Part shown: positions 5,456 to 41,733 of the stretch, piece by piece
Position numbering within the stretch: the stretch's first letter is position 1
Layout of the letters: each line of letters opens with the position of its first letter
Assembly (NCBI GenBank): GCA_024278215.1
Contig: JAJRTR010000167.1
Span: 1 to 43,396, forward strand
DNA: 43,396 nucleotides
Source of the DNA: a bacterium
Lineage (GTDB): Bacteria; UBP15; UBA6099; JAJRTR01
Direction: 5' to 3'
Made by a program: the position numbers and the translations under genes
The notes under the pieces: generated by a model
The model's database searches: none
What the model was told of the DNA's origin: nothing
What the model saw: only the letters and a program-made list of their open reading frames with translations

Positions 5456-5634
5456 GAGCCAGTTGCAAAATTATGTTCGAAGCGAGGTCGAGCAAAATTG
5501 GTCGGAAGCAAGGCGGAGGTGCAAAATCCCCGCAGGCGTACTTGTAGAGTACGTCGAGTATGATTTTGTGCCGACAACGCAACTGTTGCCAATTGCAGCC
5601 GACCGTAGCCTAATCAGAATTTTGCAATTGGCTC
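5456..5634 (+). mobile_element. ~178-bp palindromic MITE/RPE-like element, copy A
   Basis: Terminal inverted repeats GAGCCAGTTGCAAAATT / AATTTTGCAATTGGCTC; alignable to five other full copies in the window. Confidence 0.85.
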
Positions 5635-5676
5635 GTAAAAATGAAATTAACAACAATAAGTAAAACCGGAGAAGGA

Positions 5677-7770
5677 ATGAAAAGGCTTATCATTCTCATC
5701 GCTGCCGCCATTCTGTTTTTGCCTGTCTGCGCATTATGCGCCGTCGCAAAAACCGCCGGCGATTACGAACTGCTGCTTGAAACCGCTTCCCTCGGCGGAG
5801 ATGCGGGAGACATGGCGGGCAATATGGAATTGCATTGCGCAATCGGACAGCCCGTCGGCCATGATCAGTTCGCGCAGGATGTCTATGAACTATTCGGAGG
5901 ATTCCTCGGCGTTGTCGATGAGACCGCACCCACGATCAACATATCGAACCCCGCATCCGCAACGACAATCGGCGGCCCGGTCGGCATCACCGGATCCGTC
6001 TTCGACGAAAATATCACACAGTGGACTATAGAATACGGAGCGGGCGCATCGCCGTCCACCTGGGACCAACTCAGCGACGGAAACACGAATGTCACATCCT
6101 CGAACCTTGCCCCCTGGGACGCCTCGCTCCTTGGCGGCACCTACTCGGCACGCCTCACCGCAACCGACGACCGCGGCAACACCGCGACATCAGCGGTCAG
6201 CTTCACCATTGAAAACAGCCTCAGCATCAGCGGCACAATCCCAATGCACAAATGGGTATTCCTCTCGATGCCCCTCGGCGTCGACCCGGACGATCCGCTT
6301 TCCCTGTACGGCACAGATTACGAATACAAAGTATTCCGCTGGAACCCCGACAGTGAATACATGCAGGATTCCGGCAGATATGAATATCCCGAACACCTGA
6401 CGGCAGGCACAGGATACTGGGTGAAAGCGTACAACAAGGATTTGCCTTACAGTTACAACGGCGTCCTCTCGGACACAACACAGGATTACGCAGTCAGCGT
6501 GAAAGAAGGCTGGAACCAGATCGGCACGCCATACTCTGAAAACTACCCCTGGGCTTATGTGAAAGTCGGGCAGGGAGCCGAAACTTATGATATGGCGACT
6601 GCCGTTTCCATGGGCCTGCTTTCCCAGACAATCACTACATTCGATGCCGACATTAACGGATGGGTTCAGCACGATCTTTCAACCGACATGGAACCATACA
6701 CAGGCTACAACGTGCGGGCATACCAGGATTTGGAGCTTCTTTTCGACCCAGCCGTCATCATCTCCGGCAGTGTCCCCAGGCAGCTCTCACGAATCATACG
6801 GGTACCGCATGAATTCAACGTAAAAATATCCGCCGCCGCCACGCACTCCGCCGACCCGGACAACTACTTCGGCATATCACCCGCCGCCGCTCGCGAATTC
6901 GATCCCCTCGATTACGAAGAGCCATTCCATTCTCCAGGCGGTTACTTCACTTCATTATATTTCGACCACGACAACTGGCAGCGAATGGCCGGCAGGTATG
7001 CAAACGATTTGCGCAACGCAGCCGCCGTGACGGCTCAATCAGGCGACTGGGATTTCAACGTCGAAACAAATGAAACCGGACAGACCGTCACACTCTCATG
7101 GGACAGCTCTAAACTTCCCGCGGACCGCTATACCTTCACACTCGTGGACCTCACGACAGGCACTCGAATCGATATGACCACACAGTCCTCCTACGTATAC
7201 ACAGCAGCAGGCGAAGGCAATGCCCTGAACAGCTTCAGAATCGAAGTAAGGAGAAAAGACACCGTGCAGGTCGTGCGCTCGATCACACTCGCTCCCGGCT
7301 GGAACCTCGTCAGTGTACCGCTCGACCCGGAAGTCACAAGCGCCCTGGCTCAACTCGGCGACGACCTGCCCATACTCGACGTGTTCCAGTTCTTCGACGG
7401 GAAATTCTATCCCGCGGAAGAAGCCGACATACAGGCCGGTATCGGCTACTGGATACACGTCGATAAAAACACAGAGATTGACATAGAAGGAGAGTTGCCC
7501 GAAAACACCATCAAGGTACCACTCAGCATCGGATGGAACATGATCGGCAACCCCTACGAAGCTACCGTTCAGTGGAGCGACGACGCCATCTCATTTATAT
7601 GCAACGGCGCGCGAAAAACATTATCACAGGCAGTATCTGAAAAACTCGTCGTCGACGGACTGTACGAATATACCGGCGAGGGATACACCCCCGCCGAAGC
7701 ACTGCTTCCCTGGCACGGTTATTTCTTCAGGTCGGCATCAAAATGCGAACTGGAAATCACCGGTCCGTAG
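5677..7770 (+). CDS. Secreted Ig-like/beta-sandwich surface protein
   Basis: RBS GGAGAAGGA before ATG 5677; signal peptide MKRLIILIAAAILFL; Big-like segment (DETAPTINISNP...LTATDDRGN); recurring GWN[LQM][IV] motifs. Confidence 0.7.
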   Translation: MKRLIILIAAAILFLPVCALCAVAKTAGDYELLLETASLGGDAGDMAGNMELHCAIGQPVGHDQFAQDVYELFGGFLGVVDETAPTINISNPASATTIGGPVGITGSVFDENITQWTIEYGAGASPSTWDQLSDGNTNVTSSNLAPWDASLLGGTYSARLTATDDRGNTATSAVSFTIENSLSISGTIPMHKWVFLSMPLGVDPDDPLSLYGTDYEYKVFRWNPDSEYMQDSGRYEYPEHLTAGTGYWVKAYNKDLPYSYNGVLSDTTQDYAVSVKEGWNQIGTPYSENYPWAYVKVGQGAETYDMATAVSMGLLSQTITTFDADINGWVQHDLSTDMEPYTGYNVRAYQDLELLFDPAVIISGSVPRQLSRIIRVPHEFNVKISAAATHSADPDNYFGISPAAAREFDPLDYEEPFHSPGGYFTSLYFDHDNWQRMAGRYANDLRNAAAVTAQSGDWDFNVETNETGQTVTLSWDSSKLPADRYTFTLVDLTTGTRIDMTTQSSYVYTAAGEGNALNSFRIEVRRKDTVQVVRSITLAPGWNLVSVPLDPEVTSALAQLGDDLPILDVFQFFDGKFYPAEEADIQAGIGYWIHVDKNTEIDIEGELPENTIKVPLSIGWNMIGNPYEATVQWSDDAISFICNGARKTLSQAVSEKLVVDGLYEYTGEGYTPAEALLPWHGYFFRSASKCELEITGP

Positions 7771-7856
7771 ATATTATCCCACATATTCAACCCCCAATGC
7801 GGGTTATGGGTTTGCTGTTTCGATAGACCTGGAATATAGAAAGCGCCAGTTGTAAC

Positions 7857-8034
7857 GAGCCAATTGCAAAATTATGTTCGTAGCGATGTCGAGCGAAATT
7901 GTTCAGAGCAAGGCAGAGATGTAACATCCCCGCAGGCGTACTTGTAAAGCATGTCGAGGACGATTTCGCGCCGACAACGCAGCTATGGACAATAGCAGCC
8001 GACCTCAGCAAAATCATAATTTTGCAATTGGCTC
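7857..8034 (+). mobile_element. ~178-bp palindromic element, copy B
   Basis: GAGCCAATTGCAAAATTATG...CATAATTTTGCAATTGGCTC between convergent genes. Confidence 0.85.
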
Positions 8035-8042
8035 TAGCGTTA

Positions 8043-11318: not shown

Positions 11319-13034
11319 ATGTCTCGCGCTGTGGGCATTGATTTCGGTACAACAAATTCCGTCGTCGCCGTGATGGAAGGCGGCGAAACAGTCGTCATCC
11401 CCAACAACCGCGGCGAGCGGCTCACTCCGTCGGTTGTTTCTTTCGGGGGCGGCGGAGAGATACTTGTCGGAACGGCCGCGAAAAATCAGGCGATAATAAA
11501 TTTCGAGCGCACTGTTGTCTCTGTAAAGCGAAAGTTCGGCACTGAGTTTTCTCTCGGCGTCGACGACAAAAAATACAATCCCGAGCAGATAGCGGCCATA
11601 GTTATCGGCAGACTCAAGGAAAGCGCCGAGGAATTCATCGGAGAAGAAGTGCGAAGCGCGGTAATCACCGTTCCGGCATATTTCAACGACGGCCAGAGAC
11701 AGTCGGTGAAGAAGGCTGGAGAGATGGCGGGGCTGGAAGTGATGCGGCTGATAAATGAGCCTACAGCGGCGGCGCTCGCGTACAATATGCCGCGCGGCGG
11801 CGAGGGCGCGATACTCGTGTTCGATCTCGGCGGCGGCACTTTCGACGTTTCCATACTCGATGTTTCCGACACTGTCTATGAAGTCATCGCCACGGCGGGC
11901 AACAACAAGCTGGGCGGCGACGATTTCGACACGGCGCTTGTGCATCACTTCTGCAGCGAGTTTTACCAGCAGCACAGCATTGATCTTCGCGAGGACCTGA
12001 TGGCGCTCCAGAAGATACGCGACGCGGCCGAGCAGGCGAAAAAAGAGTTGTCCGAATCCGACGCTACGACTGTGAATGTTCCTTTTATTTCCGCGGACAA
12101 AGACGGGCCGAAACATCTCGAAATCACTATCACACGCACAGGGTTCGAGAACCTGATAAGAAAGCATCTCGACGAAATAGATGAACTCGTGGTCCGTGCC
12201 ATGGAAGACGCCGATGTGGAAGCGGAGGATATCGACAGGGTGATCCTGGTGGGCGGATCGACGCGGGTGCCTGCGGTTCAGAGGCTGCTCGATGACCGGT
12301 TCGCGGGGCGTGTGATGAAGAACACGAATCCTGACGAATGTGTCGCGGCAGGCGCTGCGATACAGGCGGGCATCATGAGCGGCAGCGTGAAGGGACTCGT
12401 GCTGGTGGATGTCACGCCGCTGACGCTGGGCATTGAAACCGAGCACGATGTTTTCGTGCCGATCATCGAGCGCAACAGTTGCATCCCCACATCGCAGAAC
12501 AGGATTTTCACCACTGTCACAGACAACCAGAACGAGGTGGAGATACACGTGGTACAGGGCGAGCGTTCGCAGGCGAGCAAGAACTATTCGCTGGGTAAAT
12601 TCACACTCGAGGACATCGAACCGGCGCGGCGCGGCACTCCGCGCATCGAGGTGCTGTTCGACATCGACGTCAACGGGATAGTGCATGTGAGCGCGAAAGA
12701 CCAGCGCACCGGCAACGCGAAGAAGATCGAAGTGTCGCCCCGTGAGAAACTGTCGGAAGAGGAGATCGAGCAGATCGTCTCGGACGCCGAACAGCACAGG
12801 CGCGACGACGAAGTGTTCCTGGGCCGCCGACAGCTCATAAAGCAGGCGCGCACCCTGCTCGTGTTGCTGAAAACGAAGGCTGCTTCCGGTGACATTTCCG
12901 ACGACGACGAGGTCCCAGAAATAAATGAACTTGTCGAATATATCGAAAAGGTCATGCAGGGTGACGACATCGAACAGATACGGAACGCGATTGAAACGAT
13001 GAACGTATACCTGAACGAGCTGGCGGTCGCGTGA
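11319..13034 (+). CDS. dnaK: Hsp70/DnaK-family chaperone (short, probably a paralogue)
   Basis: GIDFGTTNS, TVPAYFND, INEPTAAALAY, VFDLGGGTFDVS, LGGDDFD, LVGGSTRVP, DVTPLTLGIE; 571 aa. Confidence 0.9.
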   Translation: MSRAVGIDFGTTNSVVAVMEGGETVVIPNNRGERLTPSVVSFGGGGEILVGTAAKNQAIINFERTVVSVKRKFGTEFSLGVDDKKYNPEQIAAIVIGRLKESAEEFIGEEVRSAVITVPAYFNDGQRQSVKKAGEMAGLEVMRLINEPTAAALAYNMPRGGEGAILVFDLGGGTFDVSILDVSDTVYEVIATAGNNKLGGDDFDTALVHHFCSEFYQQHSIDLREDLMALQKIRDAAEQAKKELSESDATTVNVPFISADKDGPKHLEITITRTGFENLIRKHLDEIDELVVRAMEDADVEAEDIDRVILVGGSTRVPAVQRLLDDRFAGRVMKNTNPDECVAAGAAIQAGIMSGSVKGLVLVDVTPLTLGIETEHDVFVPIIERNSCIPTSQNRIFTTVTDNQNEVEIHVVQGERSQASKNYSLGKFTLEDIEPARRGTPRIEVLFDIDVNGIVHVSAKDQRTGNAKKIEVSPREKLSEEEIEQIVSDAEQHRRDDEVFLGRRQLIKQARTLLVLLKTKAASGDISDDDEVPEINELVEYIEKVMQGDDIEQIRNAIETMNVYLNELAVA

Positions 13035-13714
13035 TGGCGGCGGATGCGCGGGAAAAGATAAAAAAATACTGCGCTGTACTCGGTGTGGCGGAAGGCGCCG
13101 GGGCAAAAGAGCTCAAAAAGGCCTACCACTGCAAAGCGGCTAAACTTCACCCCGACGTATGCCCGAACGATCCCATGGCAACCGAGGCTTTCAGGAAAGT
13201 CAACATTGCTTATCAGTATCTTAAAAAAGATGCGCGTGGCAGGAAGAAAAAATCACGTCCGAAGATCAACAAGGTAACGCGCGTCCCGGCTTCGGACTTC
13301 ACGGCGTCGCGGCGTCGTGCCGTGCCGCCTGCGCTGGACCTGCCCCCCGAAGAACTCGCCTTCCGGCTCAAATATTCCAGCAACACTTATGTTCGCATTC
13401 ACGCTGTACGCACGCTCCGCAAAACCGGGGGCAAGGAGGCTGTGTGGGCTGTTCTGCCTGCTATCGAGGACACCAACCGGCAGGTGGCCGCCGAGGCAGT
13501 AGCCGCGCTCGGGATGCTGGGCGCCCGCATCGCCGTTCTGCCGCTGATCCAGCTTTATAACAAAGCCGATACGATACTACAGTTACGTATCCAGTGGGCG
13601 CTGAAAAGGATCGATTCGCCAATAGCAGCAAGATTCGTTTCCCGCATCTCGCCGGAAAAAGAGGAATCGACCACCCTCGAAGCCCCCCGCTCCGGCGAGG
13701 GCTCGACAGCCTGA
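13031..13714 (+). CDS. J-domain protein with C-terminal HEAT repeats
   Basis: VLGV...LKKAY...LHPD J-domain; HEAT-like VRIHAVRTL / AAEAVAALGMLG; overlaps the dnaK stop. Confidence 0.85.
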   Translation: MMAADAREKIKKYCAVLGVAEGAGAKELKKAYHCKAAKLHPDVCPNDPMATEAFRKVNIAYQYLKKDARGRKKKSRPKINKVTRVPASDFTASRRRAVPPALDLPPEELAFRLKYSSNTYVRIHAVRTLRKTGGKEAVWAVLPAIEDTNRQVAAEAVAALGMLGARIAVLPLIQLYNKADTILQLRIQWALKRIDSPIAARFVSRISPEKEESTTLEAPRSGEGSTA

Positions 13715-14709: not shown

Positions 14710-15339
14710 CTATCGCTTATCCTTCTTTATACCGTTTAGAACCATGTTCATGAGAAATTCCTCGAACTGTTTGACGGAATTATTGCAGACCTTTTTCAGA
14801 GAATCCGACTTACCCCATTGAATGACGCATGTCGAGATGAGTTCGCAGGCGGCGAAACCGTCTGTATCATCGAAGATGCCTGCTGCCGCGCATTCGTCGT
14901 AAAAGTAGCGGAACTTGTCGATATAGAGGACTTTCTTCTCTTCCATGATTTCCCGGTCGGTTGCTTCCATGCCGAGGAGCTCAGGGATAAGCGCCCTTGC
15001 TGTCTGGCTGTACTCTTCAGTCAGAGTCAATTGTACGTGGATGGCCTCCCTGAATTTTTCTTCCGGCGGTATGTCCCTGGTTTTTATACGGTCCCATTCG
15101 GCGAAGAGCATGCTGTGGGCTTCGTCCATGACGAGGAATAGAAGGTCTTTTTTGCTGTCTATGTATTCGTAGAGAGTGCCTTTGCCGAGGTCCGCTTCTT
15201 CGGCTATTTCGCGGACGGTGGCGTTATGATAACCTTTGCGGGCGAACACGGCGGCGGCGGCGGTGAATATCTGCCTGCGCCGTTTGTTCGCATGTTCCTG
15301 CGATCTTTTAAGTGCTGCTGCGGATTTTTTTCTTGCCAT
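14710..15339 (-). CDS. TetR/AcrR-family regulator
   Basis: IFTAAAAVFARKGYHNATVREIAEEADLGKGTLYEYIDSKKDLL HTH. Confidence 0.92.
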   Translation of the reverse strand: MARKKSAAALKRSQEHANKRRRQIFTAAAAVFARKGYHNATVREIAEEADLGKGTLYEYIDSKKDLLFLVMDEAHSMLFAEWDRIKTRDIPPEEKFREAIHVQLTLTEEYSQTARALIPELLGMEATDREIMEEKKVLYIDKFRYFYDECAAAGIFDDTDGFAACELISTCVIQWGKSDSLKKVCNNSVKQFEEFLMNMVLNGIKKDKR

Positions 15340-15417
15340 GTCGGTCCCGGCTCCTAATGGTTCTTGTAGCTTTTATAAGATGGAAGCTGGAGCTTCCGCT
15401 TTTTTCTGCGTCTGCTC

Positions 15418-15444
15418 ATCGACAACATGTTGTCGCTTACGGCG
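15418..15444 (-). repeat. REP-like palindrome, family 3 copy 1
   Basis: ATCGACAACATGTTGTCGCTTACGGCG contains a perfect 16-bp palindrome; near-identical copy at 22038-22064. Confidence 0.6.
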
Positions 15445-15454
15445 CGATAAGGGC

Positions 15455-18400
15455 CTAATCAGCAGCATCATTCTTTTTAAGGTGATCCCACAGGGGCGGC
15501 AGGTCACGTTTCCCGGTGATATAGAGAACTGCACGCGTTCCGCTGTCGAACAGTATGTACATGGCGGGAATGAACACGAGAGTGAGCACAGCCGAAACGG
15601 TGAGTCCGCCGATCGCGATGATCGCCATCGGAGCACGCATTCCGCCGCCTTCCCCGCCGAAAAACGCCGCGGGGACCATGCCGCAGATCGTCGATAGTGT
15701 CGTGATGAGGATCGGTCTTAGCCTCTTGGGGGAAGCGTCGAGAATAGCGTCGTTTCTCGACATCCCTTCCTCTCGCTTCTGGTTGATAAAGTCGATCAGG
15801 AGAATTCCGTTGTTCACCACTATTCCGATAAGAAGTACTATGCCGATCTGGGACATCATATTGAATGTATTGTTCGAGAGATAAAGCGACCACACCACGC
15901 CGATGAATGTAAGCGGGAGCGTGAACATAACGACCAGCGGCTGGAGAAACGACTCGAACTGCGCGGCCATGACCATGTAAATAAATATCAGGGCGAGCAA
16001 CATAGCCGTGCCCATTTCGGCGCCCATCTCGGACATCTGCGAGTACTCGCCTTCATACTCGACAGTGTATCCTTTCGGCAACCCCATCTTTTTTATGCCG
16101 GCTTTAATGGAGTTCACGACTTCGTTGATTGTCTTGTCGCCGAGCGCGCCTTCGAGCTTGATGAGCGGCACACCGTCCTTGCGCCTGAGCGTCGCGTAGC
16201 CGAGGTCCTGTTCGACCCGCGCTACATTCGACAGCCTGACAGCGCCCCGCTTCGTCATGATGGGAATGTTTTTAACATCTTCCACCGTTTGCCTGTTTTC
16301 GCCGTCGAACCTGACACGTATGTCGTATTCGTCGCCGCCGACACGATATTTGACCGAGTCGTCTCCTTCGAGCGAAGCGCGCATCGTCATGCCGACAGTC
16401 GCGACATCCAGCCCCATCCGCGCCATTTTCTCTTTGTCGGGAATAACCCTGATTTCGGATTTTCCCGTTTCATAAGAACTGTTGACATCCTGCGCGCCGG
16501 GAGTCGCCTTGACTATATTCTCGATTTTTTCCGAAAGAGCCACCAGCGTTTCCATGTCCGGGCCCATGATGTCGACTTCGAGCGGAAGCTGACCCGGCGG
16601 GCCTCCCATGTTGGCCTGCACGATCTGGAAAGTGGCGTCGGGAATAGTTGCGGCGTGATGTCTCAGCAGGCTGATGATGTCGTCCGTGCTTCGGTCCCTG
16701 TCGGCAAAACCGACAAGATTTATCGTCATGTAGCCCTTTGTGGGCGCTTTTTGAGACATGCTTCCCTTCAGGTCCTGCCCCGCGATGCCCGTATATGTTT
16801 CGACTTCCGGGATCGTTTTTACGAATTCTTCCATGTCTTTAATTGCATTGTTTGTGTCGTCGAGAGAAGAATAGGCGGGCATGTCGAGAAGAACATATAT
16901 CTCGCCCTGATCGGTGGACGGAACGTATTCCTGCTTAACGAGTGGAAACACGAATTTAAGTGTTGCCAGAAAGATACCGGTGATAACTATGATCGTAACC
17001 GGCCAGAGCTTTATGTTGGCCCTTAGTATCGCCGGGTATGACCGCTGAACACGACCCATAAAGAAGTCGAAAACCGGAAACAGGAGATACCTGAAAACGG
17101 CGGTGAACGGGAAGAAAATGACGCCGAGCATCTTCATGATGAACGACTGCCCGGTTTTGATCTTCTCCCCGTTTTCGTCCTTGAGCTGCTTGAACATCCG
17201 GGCGGATAGCGCCGGTGTCAGCGTGAAAGCGATGAAGATGGCGAATATCGTGGCGAATACAACAGAGAAGCCGAACTGCTTGAAGAACTGCCCGGTCATG
17301 CCGGTCATGAACGCTACCGGGATGAACACGCAAATATTGGTCGAACCGGAAGCGATAACGGCAAGACCGACCTGTTTCACGCCGTCGGCCGCCGCCTGTG
17401 CAGGCGGTTTCCCCATCTCGAGGTGCCGGTATATGTTTTCGAGCACAACGACGGAATTATCCACGAGCGTACCCACAGCGATCGACAGGCCCATCAGGGA
17501 CATGAAGTTGATGGTGAAACCCGCGACATATATCGGCATGAATGTGCCGATGATGGCTGTTGGAAGCGCAAGGAAGATAATGAACGTGCTGCGGAGGTCT
17601 TTGAGGAAGAGGAATATCATCAGGGTGGCGAAGAGGCCGCCGTAGAGCAGGCTCGTTTTCACCTCTGCAAGCGCGTTTACGACGAAGTGGGACATATCCA
17701 TCGTCACCCTGACGATGTAGTCGTCCGGCAGGTATTTGCCCACGAGTGTTTTCAACGCTTTTTTTGTGTCGGCGGCAACCTCGACCGTGTTCGCGCCGCT
17801 TTGTTTTATGATTTCCATCGTCACGGCGTTTTCGGAATTCAGGCGCGAGTATTTAGTTGTGTCTTTTACGGAATCGACAACTGTTGCGATGTCACCGATC
17901 TTCACAAGCCCCATCGGGCCGGCGATTTCCACGTCTTTTATTTCGTCGACCGTGCGGTACTCGCCCATAAGCCGCACGATACTTTCATCTGTGCCTTTTT
18001 TGATTTTTCCGGCGGGAAAGTCGATGTTGTCCCGGCCCAGCGCCTGCACCACCTGCAGTATGGAAAGGTTGTAGCCGATCAGCTTGTCGCGGTTCACGTT
18101 GACTTGTATCTCCCGCTCCTGTCCGCCGGAGACACCCACATTGGCGACACCGTTTATCTTCTCGAGTTGTTTCGAGACAATGTCGTCTACAGCTTTTCGC
18201 ACTTCGAGCTCGGATCGCGGGGCGGAGACAGCGGCGAAAAGAATCGGGAACGCCGTCGGGTCGATCTGCTGGATGAAAGGGTCCTCGGCATCGTCGGGCA
18301 GATCATTTATAACAAGGTCTATTTTGTCGCGGATTTCGTTGACTTTCGCGTCGAGGTCGACACCCATGTGGAACTCCATCATGATGTTCGACATGCTTTC

Positions 18401-18655
18401 GCCGGACGTGCTGTAATACTTTTTCAAGTCGCTGAGTGAAGACAGCTCATCTTCAAGTTTGTCGGTGACCTGGAGGTCCACTTCCTCGGGCGACGCGCCC
18501 GGATATATGGTAACTACCATCACATAGGGGATATCGGCTTCGGGAAACAGTTCGACCGGCAGTTTCTGTATGGCGGTCAGACCCAGAATGACAACCGCCA
18601 TGATTATCATCGTTATAAAAACCGGCCTGCGTATCGATACATCCGCGAGATTCAT
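15455..18655 (-). CDS. RND efflux permease (AcrB/AcrD/AcrF family)
   Basis: SIRRPV start, GTLVDNSVVVLENI, GIVVNNGILLIDF, RLRPILITT; 1066 aa. Confidence 0.95.
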   Translation of the reverse strand: MNLADVSIRRPVFITMIIMAVVILGLTAIQKLPVELFPEADIPYVMVVTIYPGASPEEVDLQVTDKLEDELSSLSDLKKYYSTSGESMSNIMMEFHMGVDLDAKVNEIRDKIDLVINDLPDDAEDPFIQQIDPTAFPILFAAVSAPRSELEVRKAVDDIVSKQLEKINGVANVGVSGGQEREIQVNVNRDKLIGYNLSILQVVQALGRDNIDFPAGKIKKGTDESIVRLMGEYRTVDEIKDVEIAGPMGLVKIGDIATVVDSVKDTTKYSRLNSENAVTMEIIKQSGANTVEVAADTKKALKTLVGKYLPDDYIVRVTMDMSHFVVNALAEVKTSLLYGGLFATLMIFLFLKDLRSTFIIFLALPTAIIGTFMPIYVAGFTINFMSLMGLSIAVGTLVDNSVVVLENIYRHLEMGKPPAQAAADGVKQVGLAVIASGSTNICVFIPVAFMTGMTGQFFKQFGFSVVFATIFAIFIAFTLTPALSARMFKQLKDENGEKIKTGQSFIMKMLGVIFFPFTAVFRYLLFPVFDFFMGRVQRSYPAILRANIKLWPVTIIVITGIFLATLKFVFPLVKQEYVPSTDQGEIYVLLDMPAYSSLDDTNNAIKDMEEFVKTIPEVETYTGIAGQDLKGSMSQKAPTKGYMTINLVGFADRDRSTDDIISLLRHHAATIPDATFQIVQANMGGPPGQLPLEVDIMGPDMETLVALSEKIENIVKATPGAQDVNSSYETGKSEIRVIPDKEKMARMGLDVATVGMTMRASLEGDDSVKYRVGGDEYDIRVRFDGENRQTVEDVKNIPIMTKRGAVRLSNVARVEQDLGYATLRRKDGVPLIKLEGALGDKTINEVVNSIKAGIKKMGLPKGYTVEYEGEYSQMSEMGAEMGTAMLLALIFIYMVMAAQFESFLQPLVVMFTLPLTFIGVVWSLYLSNNTFNMMSQIGIVLLIGIVVNNGILLIDFINQKREEGMSRNDAILDASPKRLRPILITTLSTICGMVPAAFFGGEGGGMRAPMAIIAIGGLTVSAVLTLVFIPAMYILFDSGTRAVLYITGKRDLPPLWDHLKKNDAAD

Positions 18656-18769
18656 TCCGCAATGTTCCTTTTCTTCAGTCTACTTCTTCTGTGTTTCTTC
18701 ACTTAACCGCGCTGGTGAAATATGCGGGTTAATAAATCCGCATACGCCCTGCCCCGGCTATACGCTGCT

Positions 18770-19984
18770 TCAGTAGTCCTGCGTCGCCTCGATGCTGACT
18801 TTATCGCCCTCTTCAAGGATGCTCTGGCCCTCGATGACAACCATGTCGCCCGGAACGATGCACCCGTCTGTGATTACAACAAAATCGGAAACCCGCTGTG
18901 TTCCGTTGCAGAGTTTCTGCTTCGCTGTTTCGCCGACAACGGTTATCAAGTACCTGTTGTCGAGCAGCGCCTTGTAAGGAACCGCGAATTCGTTTTTTGT
19001 TCCAAGCATGATCCGGCCTTCTACAAAAGAGCCGGGGGAGAGTTCCACCGGTTCGTCGATTATGACAGCTTCGACTTCGGCTTCGCGCGTCATTTTCCTG
19101 ACATGGTTGCTGACATAAGTGATTTTCGCTTTAAACTCGGTGTTTTCGACAGCGTCGGTGGTGAAGGTGATGATGTCGCCTGTTTTTATCCGGTTTTGAT
19201 CCGCCTCGTTGACAGTGAACACAACTTTTTTCGGGCCGGATTTGAGTATTTGAAAAATTGCGTCCCTGGTGCCGGCGCCCTGGCCCAGAACAGCGAACTT
19301 ATATGAGATCACACCGTCCACGGGAGAAACAACCGTTGTGCGGTCGAGCATAAGCTTTGCCGAATCCATAGCCGCTCTCGCCTGTTCCACCTGCGCCTCG
19401 ATAACTTTTATCTGTTCGGGTCTCGCGCCGGTGACCGCCATCTCGAGGCTTTTCCTCGACGCGATGCAGGCTGTTTCAGCACCGTCGAGTTGTTGCTTCG
19501 CAGCGACACCTTTATCGTACAGGTCTTTAAGCCGCTGGAAGTTCTTGCAGTCATACTCTTTCTTTGCCTTCACCTGGACAAGTTCCTCGGACCTTGCACC
19601 CGTTATTGCCATTTCGAGACCGTTTTTCGCCTGTTCATAAGCAGCCTTCGCACGCCGGTAACCCAGTTCGTAGTCCTTTTTCTCTATCTGCAAAAGCGCC
19701 TCTCCCTTTCGGACACTCTCGCCTTTGTCTTTGTATATCGCTATGATCTCGCCTCCGACCTTCGGAGTCACATTCACTTCGTCGGGTGCTTCCACCGTGC
19801 CGCTCATTGTGATCGTAACAGGCAGCAGCATACTTTTCGCTATTACAACTTTGACCGGTTTCCCTTCCTGTTCCTGTATCTGCTGGATCGAGAGATTGTT
19901 ATCTTCTTCATCCTTTTTCCCGGCGCAGCCTGCGACGGCGGCGACCGCGAACATTATCAACATTATTGCGGCAATTCGTTTCAT
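18770..19984 (-). CDS. RND periplasmic adaptor (MFP) lipoprotein
   Basis: RBS GGGGAGA, lipobox VAG-C, KVGGEI...GESVRKGEALL and SPVDGVI motifs with long coiled coil; the longer ORF-track start runs through a repeat element. Confidence 0.9.
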   Translation of the reverse strand: MKRIAAIMLIMFAVAAVAGCAGKKDEEDNNLSIQQIQEQEGKPVKVVIAKSMLLPVTITMSGTVEAPDEVNVTPKVGGEIIAIYKDKGESVRKGEALLQIEKKDYELGYRRAKAAYEQAKNGLEMAITGARSEELVQVKAKKEYDCKNFQRLKDLYDKGVAAKQQLDGAETACIASRKSLEMAVTGARPEQIKVIEAQVEQARAAMDSAKLMLDRTTVVSPVDGVISYKFAVLGQGAGTRDAIFQILKSGPKKVVFTVNEADQNRIKTGDIITFTTDAVENTEFKAKITYVSNHVRKMTREAEVEAVIIDEPVELSPGSFVEGRIMLGTKNEFAVPYKALLDNRYLITVVGETAKQKLCNGTQRVSDFVVITDGCIVPGDMVVIEGQSILEEGDKVSIEATQDY

Positions 19985-20048
19985 AGCTGCATTCTCCCCA
20001 TTCAGAACCGTTTTGCAAAAGTTCGTAATTCCATATATGTATTCATTC

Positions 20049-20224
20049 GAGCCAATTGCAAAATTACGTTTGTGACGAGTCCGAACGATATTATTCCGAG
20101 CAAGGCAGAGACGCGAAATCCCCGCAGGCGTACTATATAGTACGTCGAGGACGGTTTCGCGCCGATAACGCGGCTCGGAGCAATTGCAGCCGGAAGCAGT
20201 AGAACTGAATTTTTCAATTGGCTC
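20049..20224 (+). mobile_element. ~178-bp palindromic element, copy C (inside the efflux operon)
   Basis: GAGCCAATTGCAAAATT...AATTTTTCAATTGGCTC flanked by ATTC on both sides; overlaps the tolC stop codon. Confidence 0.85.
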
Positions 20225-21749
20225 ATTCATTGACATAATCCTCCAGCGAATCGACACCGCAGGAATATGCCAGTTGTGCTTTGGCGGTTTCGTAGTCGAA
20301 ATAAGCTTTCGCACTGTTGAGGCGTGCCTGCGTGAGCGTGTGTTCGGCATCTATCAGGTCTATCTGCGCCGTAACACCTTCTTTGAACCCAATATCCGCC
20401 ATCCTGTACGCCTCGTCTGCTATTTCAAGAATTACTTCGGAAGATTCAATTCGCTGGTTTGCTTCGATCACATCAAGGTATGCGGATTTTACCTGCAACT
20501 GGATACCTTCCCGAAGGTCCGTTTCGGAGAGATTCAGGTTTTCACGGCGCTTGAGGACCTGTGCTTTTTTCGCGGAGGCGAGACCGTTGTCAAAAACAGG
20601 TATCTCGCCTGCGATGATAGCGCGCCAGGCATCCTGCGAGGCGAATGTGCTGCCGCGGTTGTGAAATGTCCAGGTGCCGGCAAGTGAAAATACAGCTTTC
20701 TTCTCTTCGAGCTCGGCGGCGAGTTCCGTTGCATTCTGCGCCAGCTCGATCTGCTTGATCTCAGGTCGCGACACGAAAGCAAGCGCGTAATAGAAATCCA
20801 GCGGCTTGAGGTTCATCCGCCTGTAAGCGCTTTCGTCGTTCAATTCCGTTTTTCTGCTCACGGGGAATCCCAGGAGATTATTGAAAGACATAATCGACAA
20901 CGCGTGTCCTTTGTTCGTCATGATAAGTTTTTCTTTTGCCTGTTCGAGGTCGCTGCGCGCGCGGATAACATTGAGTTTCGGCACAACCCCCGCGTTGAAT
21001 CTGCTGTTGGCCGCCTCGACATGCGCACGGGCTCTCTCGACAGATTCTTCCTGTGCCTCGACCGCCCTTTCGGCCAGCAAAACCTGGTAGAACGACTTCC
21101 TGACATTCAGCATCAACTTCCTGCGCTCGAGTTCCACGTCCAGCTCTTTCACTTCGCTGTCACTTCTGGCGGCCGCTACGGCCTTCCTTTTCTTTCCGAA
21201 TGTCAACAGTGGCTTGCTTATCTTCAGTTCCGCACCATGTTGCCAGTTCTGGTTTATCTCCGCCGAAAGAAAACCGAACTTCGGCGCCGGATCAGTGATG
21301 GTATACATCGACTCGTCTTTTAGATTATCCGGGAGGTCCCACGGCTGCGGCAACACGCCGGGGATGTATATCGGTGCCACATCGTAATAGGTGTACGGCA
21401 TAGCAAATGAAGTCGGGTCATGCACCCTCTGGTAATTAGCTTCCACTTTCATATTCAGTCCGAACTGCTTTTTTGTTTCGGAAACTTTTTCCCATGATGC
21501 TTCGAGCTTGTTGACACTCGCCTTCAGCGTCCTGCTCTGTGCGACGGCGATATCGACAGCATCCGCGAGAGATAGCGATTTACCTTCGAGAGTGCCGTTG
21601 TCGAGGCTGATCTCCGACGGGCATTGCACTGCCCCGGTCGACTTTTCCGCATTCGTATCCGCGCCCGCGGGGTTTGCCGCACACAAAAACAAAAGCGATA
21701 GCAAAGCAACAGGCGCTATGCGTCGCAAACCCGATGCAGATGACGACAT
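20223..21749 (-). CDS. TolC-family outer-membrane efflux protein
   Basis: LSLADAVDIAV, RFNAGVVPKLNV, IPVFDNG, FKEGVTAQIDLIDAE OEP motifs; signal peptide after ATG 21749. Confidence 0.9.
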   Translation of the reverse strand: MSSSASGLRRIAPVALLSLLFLCAANPAGADTNAEKSTGAVQCPSEISLDNGTLEGKSLSLADAVDIAVAQSRTLKASVNKLEASWEKVSETKKQFGLNMKVEANYQRVHDPTSFAMPYTYYDVAPIYIPGVLPQPWDLPDNLKDESMYTITDPAPKFGFLSAEINQNWQHGAELKISKPLLTFGKKRKAVAAARSDSEVKELDVELERRKLMLNVRKSFYQVLLAERAVEAQEESVERARAHVEAANSRFNAGVVPKLNVIRARSDLEQAKEKLIMTNKGHALSIMSFNNLLGFPVSRKTELNDESAYRRMNLKPLDFYYALAFVSRPEIKQIELAQNATELAAELEEKKAVFSLAGTWTFHNRGSTFASQDAWRAIIAGEIPVFDNGLASAKKAQVLKRRENLNLSETDLREGIQLQVKSAYLDVIEANQRIESSEVILEIADEAYRMADIGFKEGVTAQIDLIDAEHTLTQARLNSAKAYFDYETAKAQLAYSCGVDSLEDYVNE

Positions 21750-21879
21750 TATCCCCTGCCTGCCGTTTTCATTTTTCTGGAGTAAACGTCTTTCGCACAT
21801 TTTATGCGTCCTCCGGTTATATGCTTTAAACACTTTCGTTGTCAGGCGCAAACCACACATGAACAAACCTCTCGCAAAA

Positions 21880-21937: not shown

Positions 21938-21988
21938 TAAGGGAATCGTAATTATTTTCTAAAACATATACTCGAGGGGCGGTTTTTT

Positions 21989-22018
21989 AATTATGTTCGA
22001 GGCGAGGTCGAGCGAAAT
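21989..22018 (+). repeat. Left-arm remnant of the 178-bp element
   Basis: AATTATGTTCGAGGCGAGGTCGAGCGAAAT matches the left arm of copies A/E/F. Confidence 0.7.
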
Positions 22019-22037
22019 CAGCCTGGTTTATGTTATT

Positions 22038-22064
22038 ATCGACAACGCTTTGTCGCTTACAGCG
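22038..22064 (-). repeat. REP-like palindrome, family 3 copy 2
   Basis: ATCGACAACGCTTTGTCGCTTACAGCG; 23/27 identical to 15418-15444. Confidence 0.6.
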
Positions 22065-22066
22065 AA

Positions 22067-22660
22067 CTATGGGGCCAGAATAACCTTTGTCTTGAACCAG
22101 TCGTCGCCCAGTCGCGATTCTCCGCTACGCGATATCAATATAATGAGTTCCACTATGGTGAAAAACGGAATAAAATACACGATATTTCTGAGGATCGAAT
22201 CCTTGAAATCCGCCGGCTGGCCGGTTTCAAGGTTGATTACCCTGATACCCATTGCCTTTTTGCCGAGGCTGCGGCCATCGAAGAGTGCGTCTTTTACCAA
22301 TCCGTAAACCACAACTGCAATCCATCCAAGAATCGGAATTAAACACACTACCATCATAAGTAACCCGTCGATAAGATAAGCCAGGATGCGTTTGCCGAGT
22401 ATGCCCTGCTGCGCGCCGCCGGGTACAGGCATCTGCGGGGCAGGCTGCTGTTGCATCGGTAGTGGTTGTTGTTGCGGAGGCTGGGGGAACTGCTGTTGCG
22501 GTGGGGCCGCCTGTGGCGGTGCAGGCTGAGGAGCCTGTGCATAAGGCTGTTGCGTGGCCGCCTGCGCCGCGCTTGCGCCTGTCTGTTCCACCTTTGTTCC
22601 GCATCCCGGACAGAACTTCGCCGTGTCCGCCAGGGCTCTACCGCATGATTGGCAATTCAT
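22067..22660 (-). CDS. Zinc-ribbon + P/Q-rich linker + RDD-family membrane protein
   Basis: CxxC...CxxC N-terminus, KRILAYLID, GRSLGKKAMGIRV, RLGD; GGAGG RBS. Confidence 0.88.
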   Translation of the reverse strand: MNCQSCGRALADTAKFCPGCGTKVEQTGASAAQAATQQPYAQAPQPAPPQAAPPQQQFPQPPQQQPLPMQQQPAPQMPVPGGAQQGILGKRILAYLIDGLLMMVVCLIPILGWIAVVVYGLVKDALFDGRSLGKKAMGIRVINLETGQPADFKDSILRNIVYFIPFFTIVELIILISRSGESRLGDDWFKTKVILAP

Positions 22661-22708
22661 TGTATGCCTCCGGATAATAATATCTTCTGGTCCATTATTA
22701 TTTATAAT

Positions 22709-22738
22709 AGTATATGCGTAACGGCACAATGATGTCAA
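22709..22738 (-). promoter_or_regulatory. Sigma70 promoter for the RDD gene
   Basis: Minus strand TTGACA-N18-TATACT. Confidence 0.55.
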
Positions 22739-22773: not shown

Positions 22774-22813
22774 CCCTTGTCGTTCCCAGGACCCACCCTG
22801 GAAACGATAAGGG
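22774..22813. repeat. Imperfect 17-bp-stem hairpin (REP-like)
   Basis: CCCTTGTCGTTCCCAGG-ACCCAC-CCTGGAAACGATAAGGG. Confidence 0.55.
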
Positions 22814-22851
22814 GGAAGGTCCCTGTGGGAAGTGATGAAAAATCCGGGTAA

Positions 22852-22940
22852 GCAGACGTACTCGCAGAGATTTCGCGGCGGCAACGCAGCTCCGGACAAT
22901 TGCAGCCAACCGCAGTAGAACAGCCTTTTGCAAACGGCTC
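22852..22940 (+). repeat. Right-half, internally deleted remnant of the 178-bp element
   Basis: GCAGACGTACT...CAACGCAGCTCCGGACAATTGCAGCC...TTTTGCAAACGGCTC. Confidence 0.75.
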
Positions 22941-24423: not shown

Positions 24424-24495
24424 GAGCCAACTGCGAAATTACTTATTTTAGCCAACTGCGAAATTCAGTTCTACTACTTCCGGCTGCAATTGCTC
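24424..24495 (-). repeat. Terminal remnant of the 178-bp element with duplicated end
   Basis: AGCCAACTGCGAAATT occurs twice (24425, 24450); 24450-24495 is the reverse complement of the right end of copy C. Confidence 0.75.
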
Positions 24496-24641
24496 ATTTA
24501 TTTGATTCGTGTGTAATAAGTCATTTTCAAAACAATGTTTTTGTCAAAGTCGGTCAGGATGCTTTAAAATGCTGAACGAACGTTCGTTATAGTCGATCAT
24601 TGTTGGTTGACATTTGTCATCTCCGACTTATTACACACGAA

Positions 24642-28592: not shown

Positions 28593-28768
28593 GAGCCAAT
28601 TGCAAAATAATGCTTGTTGCGAGGCCGAGAGAAATTGTTCCGGACAGAGAAGAGACAAAAATCCACACAGGGGCATTCTCGGTGCACTTTGAGAAAGTTT
28701 TTTCGCCGTCAACGATGTACGGGGCAATTGTAGCCGGACGCAACAGGACATAATCTTACAATCGGCTC
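28593..28768 (+). mobile_element. ~178-bp palindromic element, divergent copy D
   Basis: GAGCCAATTGCAAAAT...ATCTTACAATCGGCTC; same length and layout, many substitutions that keep the stems paired. Confidence 0.75.
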
Positions 28769-30650: not shown

Positions 30651-30691
30651 GAGCCGATTATTGCAGCAGAAGCCTATTTTGCAATCGGCGC
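30651..30691 (+). repeat. 41-bp deletion derivative of the 178-bp element
   Basis: GAGCCGATT...GCAGCAGAAGCCTATTTTGCAATCGGCGC retains both degenerate ends. Confidence 0.5.
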
Positions 30692-35200: not shown

Positions 35201-35233
35201 GCCCGGCTTTCTTCTTCGAGAAATCCGGGCTAC
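35201..35233 (-). repeat. GTAG-type REP-like hairpin, family 2
   Basis: Minus strand GTAGCCCGGATTTCTCGAAGAAGAAAGCCGGGC; its TAG is the stop of the upstream CDS. Confidence 0.65.
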
Positions 35234-36525
35234 TTCCTGTATCTTTTCCTTGCCTCATTGAGCCACTTGTTGATGTACTCATTTTTCACAACAGCATCCG
35301 ACCACTTCTCGCCTGCAAGCGACATGGCATCCTCTTCCGTGATGGGCGGCGCGAGCAGCGCGGCGCGTTTTTTCTTGTTCTTCGACACCTTTTCCCAGGC
35401 CGCCGCCAGGTCTTTGTGTGTGTCAATGACGTAAGCGCCGATAAGGTCGTTAAGCAGTCCCCACCTCTTCGAACCCTTCTCGAAGTCATAAGTGAAACCT
35501 TTCTTCTGCGCGAACGGATTTACCGTAACATTTGATTTACCGGCATAATCTTTGTAAAGCGAGGGCAGCACACACATCTTGTTGAGCGACACATCCACCG
35601 GCCCGCCCGGCACACCCTTTTTGTACAGCCATATCTTCTGGCCCGCCGGGCTCATCGTAAACTCGATATACGCTTCGGCAACTTTCTTGTTTGGCGCTCC
35701 TTTCAGCATCGCTATCGGGTCCGGCGTAATAACAGTCGCCTGCTGCGGCAGCACGAATCCCAACCGTTTAGGGCCAAGGTCCTCGATGGCCGAAAACGCA
35801 TAAGTATCTATAGAAAGAGCAACCGCAGTTTCGCCCACTGCTAGATCCTTGCTGATCTGGCCTGAACTCTTGGGAAAATTCCGCACATTCGCGCCAGTAG
35901 CCAGAATAATCTCCCAGCCGCGCTCCCATCCATAAGCCTGCAGGATAAGCTCGTACATAATGTGAGTGCTTCCGCTGTGGCGCGGGTCGCTCGAACCGAC
36001 AAGTTCATAAAAATCAGGGTCCGCAAGATCAACCCAACTCTGCGGCGTTTCCAGTCCGTACATTTTGAGCAGTTTCTTGTTGTAGAGAATACCGAATCCG
36101 GCCAGTGAAGAGCCATACCAGCGATACTCACTGTCATAGAGCGGTATTCCGTTGAGGTCCTTCGGTATAGTGCCGATGATTTTATCCGGCAGTTTGTAAG
36201 GTTGCAAAAGACTGTCTTTGGATAGTTCGATATAGGGGTCGATGCCGCCACCGTAGAAAATATCTACATCGATTCCTTCCGGACTGCGCGAGAAACCCGA
36301 TTTGATGAACCGCAGATCGTCCGATGTGCCGCCCTGGTCCAGCCAGGTTATCTCGACATCTCCGCCCCGGTTCGCGGCGTACCATTTCCCGAATCCCCTT
36401 GTAAACTCCGTTCGGATGCCCTCCCAATGGGGTGATATTATCACCAGTTTGTCCGCCGCTCGCGCCGGCCCCGACGCAATCACTACAACCATAAATAAAA
36501 GCAGTATTACTTTGAAATATCTCAT
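35230..36525 (-). CDS. ABC transporter substrate-binding protein (Fe3+/thiamine/phosphonate-like SBP family)
   Basis: Signal peptide; DIFYGGG, PQSWVDLADP, DPRHSGS, IAMLKGAPNKKVAEAYIEF. Confidence 0.85.
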   Translation of the reverse strand: MRYFKVILLLFMVVVIASGPARAADKLVIISPHWEGIRTEFTRGFGKWYAANRGGDVEITWLDQGGTSDDLRFIKSGFSRSPEGIDVDIFYGGGIDPYIELSKDSLLQPYKLPDKIIGTIPKDLNGIPLYDSEYRWYGSSLAGFGILYNKKLLKMYGLETPQSWVDLADPDFYELVGSSDPRHSGSTHIMYELILQAYGWERGWEIILATGANVRNFPKSSGQISKDLAVGETAVALSIDTYAFSAIEDLGPKRLGFVLPQQATVITPDPIAMLKGAPNKKVAEAYIEFTMSPAGQKIWLYKKGVPGGPVDVSLNKMCVLPSLYKDYAGKSNVTVNPFAQKKGFTYDFEKGSKRWGLLNDLIGAYVIDTHKDLAAAWEKVSKNKKKRAALLAPPITEEDAMSLAGEKWSDAVVKNEYINKWLNEARKRYRK

Positions 36526-36599
36526 CCTGAAACTCCTGTTGATGCTTTATATGTTGCCACGACAGTCATAAGTCTATCATATATTATTCACCGCCACTA

Positions 36600-36778
36600 G
36601 AGCCAATTGCAAAATTATGTTCGAAGCGAGGTCGAACGAAATTCTCCAAAAGCAAGGCGGAGGTGCAAAATTCCCGCAGACGTACTTGCAGAGTACGTCG
36701 AGGAAGATTTTGCGCCGACAACGCAGCTGTTGGCAATTGCAGCCGACCGCAGCCGAATCAGAATTTTGCAATTGGCTC
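36600..36778 (+). mobile_element. ~178-bp palindromic element, copy E
   Basis: Perfect 17-bp TIRs GAGCCAATTGCAAAATT / AATTTTGCAATTGGCTC; central GACGTACT-N5-AGTACGTC hairpin. Confidence 0.85.
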
Positions 36779-36923
36779 CTTGTATTATTGCATTGAAAAT
36801 GTTAAAATTCATTTAACTCGAAGCAATAACATCCGCCTTATTTCGAACAATTTCGCACGGTCTCACGACAGAATATAATTTTCACAATAGGTTCAGGAAT
36901 TGTTAATGGTAAAGGAAACCATT

Positions 36924-38567: not shown

Positions 38568-38578
38568 GAGGTGTAATC

Positions 38579-38938
38579 ATGCAAGATGGACCTGCAAAAA
38601 CATGTTCAACGAAATACGTCCATAAGGATGTGGTGGAGCGAGTCGAGAAGAATATGAAACCTGAGGATACGCTTCTGCGGCTTGCCGAGTTTTTCAAGGT
38701 TTTCGGCGATGTGACACGCCTTAAGATACTGACCGCGATCACCGGGAACGAACTGTGTGTGTGTGATATTGCATGTATCACAGGCATGAGCGATTCGGCT
38801 ATATCGCACCAGTTGCGGATTCTGCGCAATACAAGACTTGTCAAATATCGACGTGAGGGCCGTGTTGTCTTCTATTCGCTGGACGACGAACATATCTCCG
38901 GCATCATTACGGAAGGAATCAGCCATGTCGAGGAGTAG
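38579..38938 (+). CDS. ArsR/SmtB metalloregulator (CadC/ZiaR-like)
   Basis: FKVFGDVTRLKIL, ELCVCDIA (alpha3 site), SAISHQLRILR, DDEH-x10-HVEE (alpha5 site). Confidence 0.92.
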   Translation: MQDGPAKTCSTKYVHKDVVERVEKNMKPEDTLLRLAEFFKVFGDVTRLKILTAITGNELCVCDIACITGMSDSAISHQLRILRNTRLVKYRREGRVVFYSLDDEHISGIITEGISHVEE

Positions 38939-38964
38939 CCCGGATTTCTCACAAAGGAATCCGG
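38935..38964 (+). repeat. GTAG-type REP-like hairpin, family 2
   Basis: GTAGCCCGGATTTCTCACAAAGGAATCCGG; its TAG is the ArsR stop. Confidence 0.65.
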
Positions 38965-39013
38965 TGATAAGCGTCACACAATTGACATGTACTATAAATG
39001 TAAGGGTGAAAAG

Positions 39014-40294: not shown

Positions 40295-40323
40295 AGGGAG
40301 ACCGCTTTTCATCGGGGTACATT

Positions 40324-40458
40324 ATGGTGTATATTGAAAGATAGATGGAGACGACCATCCGAAGGGTGGCAAAGGATTTCCCGGCTGTGGTGCTGACCGG
40401 GTTGCGCCGGTCTGTCAAAACTACTTTATCGGATGCTGTTGATACAATCCGGCTTTAA
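40324..40458 (+). pseudogene. N-terminal remnant of an AAA_14-type ATP-binding protein
   Basis: Reads MVYIER*METTIRRVAKDFPAVVLTGLRRSVKTTL...*, a decayed version of the typical YIxR...FPVVxLTGPRQxGKTTL start; internal stop and broken Walker A. Confidence 0.6.
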
Positions 40459-40693
40459 TAAAATTCCAACATGTATGAAACGGGTTAGAACTTCTCGAAA
40501 TACGAGAAAATCAACAGCGGCTTTGAAGCTATGCGGGATAAGTTCGTTTCACTGGAGTTGCCTGATGTCAGGGAGTCGGCTTTTCTAATCACAGGGGATT
40601 ATCTGCCGTTTATTCTCCACTTATAATTTTTCATGAGGTGCAATATATGTCTGATCTTTTACAGTTGTCAAATAACAAATCCGGAGGAAACTG

Positions 40694-41497
40694 ATGAAAC
40701 TTGCTTTGCAGGAAGGTTTATATGATGACGGAGGATTCGGAAAATTCGTTGAAAGAGCGCAGGAATGGGGTTTCGATGCTGTTGAGGTATGGGGTGAAGG
40801 GCTGTCCGACAGGCTGACAGAGGTGAAAAAAGTTGTTTCCGATGCCGGAATGCCCGTGTCGTCGATCTGTCCTGGCGGCGGCGGCATTCGTGGTTCTTTG
40901 CTGAGCGGCGACGAGGCTGGGAGAAGCGCGGCGGCGGCAGACATCGAAACTTTGCTCGAGATGGGTGCTGAACTCGGCGGTGCGGGCCTGATAATTGTAC
41001 CGGAATTCGGGGTTGAAAAATTCATGGCTCTCTACCCCGATCTCAGCGATTTCGAGTCGAGAAAACGCATGTTCGCCGACCGGCTCGCGCCGCTCGCCGA
41101 GAAAGCCGCCACACTGGGCGTTGATATCCTGATCGAGCCTCTCAATCGTTACGAGGCGTTCTTTATGCTTACTGTCGGCCAGGCCGCCGAGATTTGCCGT
41201 TTGACAGGCAGTCCCGCCGTGAAGGTCATGGCCGATCTCTTTCACATGGGCATCGAGGAACGCAGTGTTATCAATGCGCTTGCCACGAATTCGGGCTACA
41301 TCGCGCATATTCATCTTGTCGACACCAACCGGAAACTCCCCGGCTTCGGCGACCGCGATTTCCTGCCGGTTTTCAAAACACTGGACGAAAAGAGTTTCGG
41401 CGGACATCTTTGCCTCGAATGCGGCATACCCGGCGACCCGTTTCATGATATTCCGAAATCGATTGAGACGATTAATATGATTCTGGATAAACTATAA
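40694..41497 (+). CDS. Sugar phosphate isomerase/epimerase (AP_endonuc_2 TIM barrel)
   Basis: GFDAVE, IEPLNRYE, DLFHM, HIHLVDTNR.LPG.G, LEC metal ligands. Confidence 0.88.
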   Translation: MKLALQEGLYDDGGFGKFVERAQEWGFDAVEVWGEGLSDRLTEVKKVVSDAGMPVSSICPGGGGIRGSLLSGDEAGRSAAAADIETLLEMGAELGGAGLIIVPEFGVEKFMALYPDLSDFESRKRMFADRLAPLAEKAATLGVDILIEPLNRYEAFFMLTVGQAAEICRLTGSPAVKVMADLFHMGIEERSVINALATNSGYIAHIHLVDTNRKLPGFGDRDFLPVFKTLDEKSFGGHLCLECGIPGDPFHDIPKSIETINMILDKL

Positions 41498-41555
41498 AGC
41501 TTGTGCGTTCTTGCAAGCGACTCTTCCGGCAAAATATTCAAGAGGGTATCCATTA

Positions 41556-41733
41556 GAGCCATTTGCAAAATTATGATTCTGCTGCGGTCGGCTGCTATTG
41601 TCCATAGTTGCGTTGTCGGTGCAAAATCGTCCTCGACGTACTCTACAAGTACGCCTGCGAGGATTTTACACCTCCGCCTTGCTCTGAACAATTTCGCTCG
41701 ACCTCGCTACGAACATAATTTTGCAATTGGCTC
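41556..41733 (-). mobile_element. ~178-bp palindromic element, copy F (reverse orientation)
   Basis: Reverse complement aligns to copies A/B; flanked by ATTA on both sides. Confidence 0.85.

Follow-up and report, generated by a model that had tools for sequence, protein, structure and literature searches.

A dense family of hairpin-forming miniature elements with IS1182-type ends in a contig of a UBP15 bacterium

The intergenic DNA of contig JAJRTR010000167.1 (assembly GCA_024278215.1, GTDB lineage Bacteria; UBP15; UBA6099; JAJRTR01), analyzed here over positions 1 to 43,396 (43.4 kb, referred to below as the window), harbors a family of palindromic repeats represented by six full copies of 176–179 bp and five partial copies. 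[quoted passage not shown] The family, densely represented in this region, is new, and its kind, a MITE with IS1182-type ends, is familiar. An earlier sequence-only reading of the same DNA had proposed that the repeats are mobile, non-autonomous and folded into a long hairpin, which is upheld here; its alternative to a plain MITE, a selected structure or a non-coding RNA, draws its support almost wholly from a single copy, designated C (Table 1).

A profile built from the six full copies recovers all of them at the coordinates reported earlier (nhmmer, E = 4.6e-60 to 4.5e-47), and the four remnants noted before (at 21989, 22852, 24424 and 30651) all exist according to the profile and a scan for the end motif; a fifth, at 36819-36894 on the minus strand, was absent from the earlier list. 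Two weaker nhmmer matches, at 7641-7694 (E = 0.022) and 22039-22076 (E = 7.9), were not significant and were dropped. The orientation needs a correction, since copy F (41556-41733) runs opposite to the other five; after it is turned, the pairwise identity of the six full copies amounts to 66–92%. Together, full and partial copies take up some 1.47 kb (3.4%) of the window, and the 16-nt end motif occurs in it 16 times with at most three mismatches, as compared with 0.59 occurrences expected (none of 100 shuffles reached 16). The copies are intergenic, as had been claimed, except that the last 2 nt of copy C fall within the stop codon of an outer-membrane efflux gene. At 176–179 bp, the full copies lie below the limit of about 300 bp that goes with prokaryotic MITEs, and their coding capacity is not conserved: stop codons vary among the copies in all six frames. 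A protein-database search with the open reading frame (ORF) spanning copy F returned two matches only; the database ORFs P0001 and P0002 match the window solely across about 60 repeat-derived residues, hence at least two further copies exist beyond the window. There was no match to copy E by blastn among 72,556 plasmids or to window positions 11001-36000 by megablast against plasmids, and a full-text literature search for the end motif found no paper.

The assignment to the IS1182 type comes from the ends of the elements. The first 16 nt of the 17-bp terminal inverted repeat (TIR) are identical (16/16) to those that terminate full-length insertion sequences of other bacteria. A genome scan with this 16-mer gave at least 97 loci, which are mostly chance matches, with a role as a transposon end visible in many of them. 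In one of these loci, L057, the motif bounds a 1444-bp element on both sides in inverted orientation; the only long internal ORF of this element encodes 376 aa with the Pfam domains DDE_Tnp_1 and DUF772. This transposase is 48–55% identical to the products of plasmid genes annotated as “IS1182 family transposase”, and with its homologues lying next to the 16-mer in two more loci, L004 and L032, three of the 97 listed loci display the association. One of the plasmid matches, ISUnCu17, possesses ends of the GAGC..TTGCAAAA pattern between the flanks ATGA/ATGA; for ISPse1, another IS1182-family insertion sequence, the entry in PMC3281130 gives an inverted repeat of 16/16 and a direct repeat of 4 bp. 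In the window, insertion duplicates 4 bp of an AT-rich target: the duplication is perfect in two of the six copies (C and F) and matches at three positions of four in two others (A and B). Thus, the 16-nt ends identical to those of insertion sequences, the DDE transposases annotated as IS1182 and the 4-bp duplications jointly point to the elements of the window as IS1182-type MITEs.

The same end motif is also employed by other short elements. Among the matches listed, 14 further cases over 13 loci combine the motif with an inverted partner 67–227 bp away; perfect 4-bp flanking duplications accompany six of the 14, and seven fold as single rods; in an eighth, L078, all pairs but one span the center. 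Judging by the record titles, these cases come from Bacteriovoracaceae, Victivallales/Lentisphaeria, Simkaniaceae, Nitrospirae-type magnetotactic bacteria, Acidobacteriota, Sphaerochaetaceae and Alphaproteobacteria. More than one copy of such a short element was present in the metagenome-assembled genomes of Simkaniaceae PL25a_bin.114, Victivallales, Lentisphaeria DeMMO1_3 and Sphaerochaetaceae Horse_feces196.

Every full copy folds end to end, and the stems named in the sequence-only reading (the 17-bp TIR, the GGTCG/CGACC stem, the AATTG stem, the 11-bp inner stem and the apical hairpin) all reappear in the RNAalifold consensus of 65 pairs, in which 90.2% of the cells are paired. The TIR contributes the 17 terminal pairs, 12 of them invariant across all six copies, and the same bulges and arm asymmetries are common to the whole set. 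The most stable RNA fold is that of copy F (-83.6 kcal/mol), followed by copy E (-80.4 kcal/mol, z = -7.86, reached by none of 200 shuffles). The fold of copy D is at -56.3 kcal/mol (z = -3.61, 1 of 200 shuffles); with its 49 substitutions, this copy displays 39 Watson–Crick and 8 G-T pairs out of the 65.

The compensatory stem changes, which were central to the earlier description, are real and exceed those in shuffled controls, but they are narrow in distribution, being carried almost wholly by copy C. Across the six copies, nine pairs are changed on both sides versus 3.8 ± 1.6 in shuffles (0 of 500 reach nine), and the share of paired cells is above the 86.9 ± 0.7% of the shuffles; the RNAalifold covariation term, at +1.43, is a net penalty. 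When each copy's substitutions were placed at random on the consensus, copy C stood out with six compensated doubles versus 0.8 ± 0.8 (no permutation reached six) and 58 paired positions versus 51.0 ± 2.0 expected (P = 0.0012). With the structure taken from E, F or A alone, its doubles number 4–5 versus about 0.8 (P = 0.005, < 0.0002 and 0.003, respectively). For copy D, four doubles versus 2.1 are not significant, also under the structures of E, F or A alone, and the paired positions number 47 versus 41.1 expected (P = 0.018); in this test, neither A nor B attains significance, and E and F reach P of about 0.01–0.03 for pairing with no doubles. Watson–Crick complementarity averages 0.817 within copies versus 0.768 between copies, and the left arm of copy D is complementary to its own right arm at 0.61 versus 0.62–0.72 to the right arms of other copies. 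Substitutions fall in paired columns in 88 of 127 cases, with paired columns making up 72.6% of all, so the stems are not protected.

The states typical of copy C recur in copy D and in the remnants 22812-22940, 24449-24516 and 36819-36894; therefore, they mark a subfamily that received them from a master copy as it propagated. An independent foldback origin of this subfamily was considered and rejected, because C possesses the same arm asymmetries as all the other copies; with bulges and asymmetries shared by the entire set, the subfamily was not rebuilt from a single arm. A family with insertion-sequence ends and neutral internal decay, which the sequence-only reading had named as the outcome opposed to its own, describes the ends (IS1182 type) and copy D, but it does not describe copy C. 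Hence, only one divergent sub-lineage provides evidence for a selected structure. As judged from the six copies compared, the two arms changing in concert could be due to selection on foldability in propagating lineages or to template-switch conversion in the hairpin.

Under the IS1182-type MITE reading, the transposase would bind both terminal repeats and then cut and paste the element. Copies occur in both orientations in intergenic DNA and in states ranging from near-consensus to decayed and truncated. The end-to-end hairpin would reflect the descent of both arms from an imperfect foldback ancestor common to all copies. Pairing would be kept in the lineages that are still transposing, as suggested by the compensated changes defining the C subfamily, and would decay after insertion, as in copy D. 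If so, any importance of the rod shape would lie in the propagation of the element rather than in an RNA function for the host.

Several observations weigh against this reading. The best NCBIfam model for the L057 transposase is IS1182, but the score of 95.7 bits does not reach the curated cutoff of 270. The 4-bp flanks of copies D and E do not match, the 178-bp family itself occurs in none of the 97 listed loci (nhmmer, E ≤ 1e-3), and no transposase was found in the window (tblastn, best E = 0.46). Past approximately 18 nt, the arms are unlike any of the insertion-sequence ends compared. Finally, the compensated changes of copy C indicate that something beyond simple neutral decay acts on the arms.

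The alternative that survives best accepts the elements as MITEs and takes the compensatory changes to be mutational: template switching in the hairpin, by quasipalindrome correction or arm-to-arm conversion, would copy a change from one arm to the other. Template-switch mutation associated with quasipalindromes is an established mechanism, and it would fit with doubles limited to a few sites in one lineage, the lack of a purifying signal on the stems, the lack of a strand bias and the conversion of G-T to Watson–Crick pairs in 10 cells at five consensus wobble pairs. However, the bulges and asymmetries of the arms were not erased by correction in any of the six copies, the 48 single-sided pair-breaking changes far exceed the repairs, and the recurrence of C-type states in remnants indicates that they arose in a master copy while it propagated, rather than after insertion. 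On balance, this explanation is possible and stays the minority one.

It is more doubtful that arm-to-arm pairing is itself needed for mobilization, i.e., that a single-stranded or cruciform hairpin would join the two IS1182-type ends for the transposase. Such a requirement would explain the compensated changes marking the propagating C subfamily; it would also explain why unrelated MITE families with the same 16-nt end, distributed over about nine major lineages (according to record titles), are mostly rod-shaped.

A functional RNA maintained by the host, whether a cis-acting mRNA element or a small RNA, with the mobile features being secondary, is improbable, and host RNA function is the least supported reading of the rod. 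It can draw on the covariation above shuffles, on the 4–6 compensated doubles of copy C, and on the folding energies, since the consensus folds better on the forward strand (-60.19 kcal/mol, 65 pairs) than on the reverse (-46.66 kcal/mol, 57 pairs). Copies A, E and F share the forward-strand advantage (+14.5, +3.0 and +13.3 kcal/mol), but copies B, C and D are without a strand difference in folding energy (+0.2, +1.3 and -3.4 kcal/mol), and D is decayed. RNA-level compensatory changes are on record for the bcr1 repeats, in the section of PMC3184786 devoted to them. The argument of the sequence-only reading that many pairs are G-T and work on one strand only, from which selection at the level of RNA or single-stranded DNA had been derived, does not hold: single-sided changes from consensus Watson–Crick pairs produced 14 G-T, 19 A-C and 15 other combinations, so that no forward wobble bias exists, and the mirror alignment of the consensus arms displays four G-T versus nine A-C. 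The structure derived from the forward strand contains 33 G-T and 19 A-C cells, a ratio to be read with the reservation that such a structure favors G-T by construction. The orientation relative to genes is also mixed, with copy A lying in sense between plus-strand genes, copy F antisense between plus-strand genes, copy C antisense inside a minus-strand operon, copy B between convergent genes, and D and E between divergent genes. Furthermore, the stems are substituted as often as the loops, the covariation term is a penalty, and Rfam 15 gave no match at the gathering score over the whole window and none at E ≤ 1 over 36560-36900. All in all, the strand data are weak and provide no evidence for a strand-specific RNA.

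Kinship with the Rickettsia palindromic element RPE-1, which the sequence-only reading had brought up for a resemblance of the apical core, or with single-strand hairpin transposons (REP/PATE, Y1 transposases) is very improbable: the palindromic nature and, for RPE-1, a repeated element of similar size are held in common, but the ends identical to those of DDE insertion sequences and the 4-bp duplications speak for DDE transposition, the copies lie between genes instead of in frame inside them, the window has 52.6% G+C, and neither the plasmid search with copy E nor the literature search for the end motif provided a link. We take the RPE features to be a Rickettsia host and in-frame insertion within genes, in place of which the window copies display an intergenic location and insertion-sequence-type ends.

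Comparison with the known systems places the family among, and apart from, several described groups. The IS1182-family insertion sequences (ISUnCu17 on Aeromonas plasmids and, in the entries given in PMC3281130, ISPse1 of Paracoccus) share with it the terminal repeats of about 16 nt of the GAGC..TTGCAAAA pattern and the 4-bp duplication; unlike the 178-bp elements of the window, which have no transposase gene, they span 1.4–1.65 kb and carry one. The similarity between the two ends of the L057 element is lost after about 18 nt, whereas the arms of the window elements pair along their whole length. The ISMac2-derived MITEs of Methanosarcina acetivorans, compared here by the description in the relevant part of PMC3852290, also belong to the IS1182 family and are of a similar size (160 and 169 bp versus about 178 bp), the 160-bp one with a direct repeat of 4 bp; they differ in their archaeal host, in the terminal repeats of 25–26 bp and in the direct repeat of 0 listed for the 169-bp one. 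Among MITE-like repeats with compensatory changes, the nearest precedent is bcr1 of the Bacillus cereus group, which, as far as its portrayal in PMC3184786 goes, is about 155 bp long and has a short direct repeat and structure-keeping compensatory changes. At the same time, its direct repeats are of 5 bp, it is transcribed, and its host and sequence are different, whereas the compensation in the window family is confined to one subfamily. Chunjie, a MITE found in Geobacter uraniireducens, resembles the family in its size (178–235 bp), in very stable predicted hairpins and in one copy inside an operon (by the accounts in parts of PMC3184786 and PMC10969869). Identity with Chunjie was excluded on the description in PMC3184786, since its 21-bp terminal repeats, 9-bp direct repeats and A+T-rich composition set it apart from the window elements with 17 bp, 4 bp and about 50% G+C, respectively.

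Table 1. Full and partial copies of the family in the window, and short elements with the same ends at other loci.
Feature	Position	Strand	Details
Copy A, 179 bp	5456..5634	+	E = 2.8e-57; between NHL-repeat gene and ORF 5641-7770; flanks GTGA/GTAA, 3/4
Copy B, 178 bp	7857..8034	+	E = 8.8e-59; between two convergent genes; flanks TAAC/TAGC, 3/4
Copy C, 176 bp, divergent subfamily	20049..20224	+	E = 1.5e-52; perfect duplication ATTC/ATTC
Copy D, 176 bp, most decayed	28593..28768	+	E = 4.5e-47; right TIR with 3 mismatches; without clear target duplication
Copy E, 179 bp	36600..36778	+	E = 5.8e-58; in divergent promoter region; 4-bp flanks not matching
Copy F, 178 bp, inverted relative to A–E	41556..41733	-	E = 4.6e-60; perfect duplication ATTA/ATTA
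Remnant, left arm (model positions 14-49), terminal repeat destroyed	21975..22040	+	nhmmer match 21989-22024, E = 8.2e-6
Remnant, right two-thirds (model positions 56-178), C/D subfamily type	22812..22940	+	nhmmer match 22828-22940, E = 3.4e-16
Remnant, right-arm end, C type, terminal motif twice	24424..24500	-	nhmmer match 24450-24496, E = 2.3e-7
Internally deleted copy, 41 bp, about 10 nt of left end joined to about 30 nt of right end	30651..30691	+	end-motif scan
Remnant, degenerate left arm, 40 bp from copy E	36819..36894	-	nhmmer match 36832-36891, E = 4.3e-5
Short same-end elements, otherwise unrelated	loci L009, L034, L035, L037, L042, L055, L061, L065, L071, L078, L084, L089, L095, L097

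The window contains ordinary chromosomal genes, and a transposase domain was detected in none of the 36 window ORFs scanned. Copy C lies in a minus-strand RND efflux operon (14710-21866) comprising an outer-membrane gene, a membrane-fusion gene and an AcrB-type pump, with a TetR gene adjoining; the copy sits between the first two of these. The TGA stop of the outer-membrane gene is formed by one flank base and the two terminal bases of copy C; an identical TGA stop would predate the insertion. The membrane-fusion gene probably starts, to judge from the sequence, at the ATG at 19984, located behind a GGGGAG motif; the ATG at 20350, from which the frame reads through copy C, is an unlikely start.

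The hexamer TTGCAA faces outward at both ends in every intact copy. In the left TIR of copy E, the outward TTGCAA, an 18-nt spacer and the flank AATAAT (36583-36612) constitute a promoter-like arrangement with a 9/12 match, directed toward the solute-binding-protein gene 35230-36525.

The gene between copies A and B was examined as the cargo of a composite transposon, which was rejected, as the outer flanks differ. A small RDD-family/zinc-ribbon gene (22067-22738, minus strand) is flanked by degenerate partial copies of the same orientation, at 21975-22040 and 22812-22940, and these two pieces are either one disrupted copy or two independent remnants. In the remnant at 24424-24464, the terminal motif stands in tandem, 25 bp apart (GAGCCAACTGCGAAAT and TAGCCAACTGCGAAAT), representing a local duplication of the tip. 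The remnant 24424-24500 is abutted by a second, unrelated element of 142 bp (24503-24644), present in a single copy in the window and bounded by perfect 20-bp TIRs, with TTTATT on both flanks as a possible 6-bp target duplication.

Other features of the window include a large repeat-rich ORF at 3-2348, built of units of about 267 and 375 bp and without a firm assignment in Pfam, followed by another large repeat-rich ORF at 3090-5414 encoding an NHL-repeat protein with 12 units spaced 174–189 bp apart. An Hsp70-family gene and the overlapping gene that comes directly after it, which combines a DnaJ domain with HEAT repeats (11319-13714), look, from their predicted domains, like a non-canonical chaperone pair. 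An ESM Atlas search with an unexplained 709-aa neighbor retrieved no informative family.

The unusually dense occurrence of this MITE family at gene boundaries, in divergent promoter regions and in an efflux operon may affect the expression of the neighboring genes. The link to IS1182-type ends provides the search for a partner transposase with a concrete target, and it shows one 16-nt end motif to be common to short hairpin elements across many bacterial lineages. For palindromic repeats at large, no structural function should be inferred from seemingly “compensatory” stem changes until they have passed controls that are run per lineage and are symmetric for the strands.

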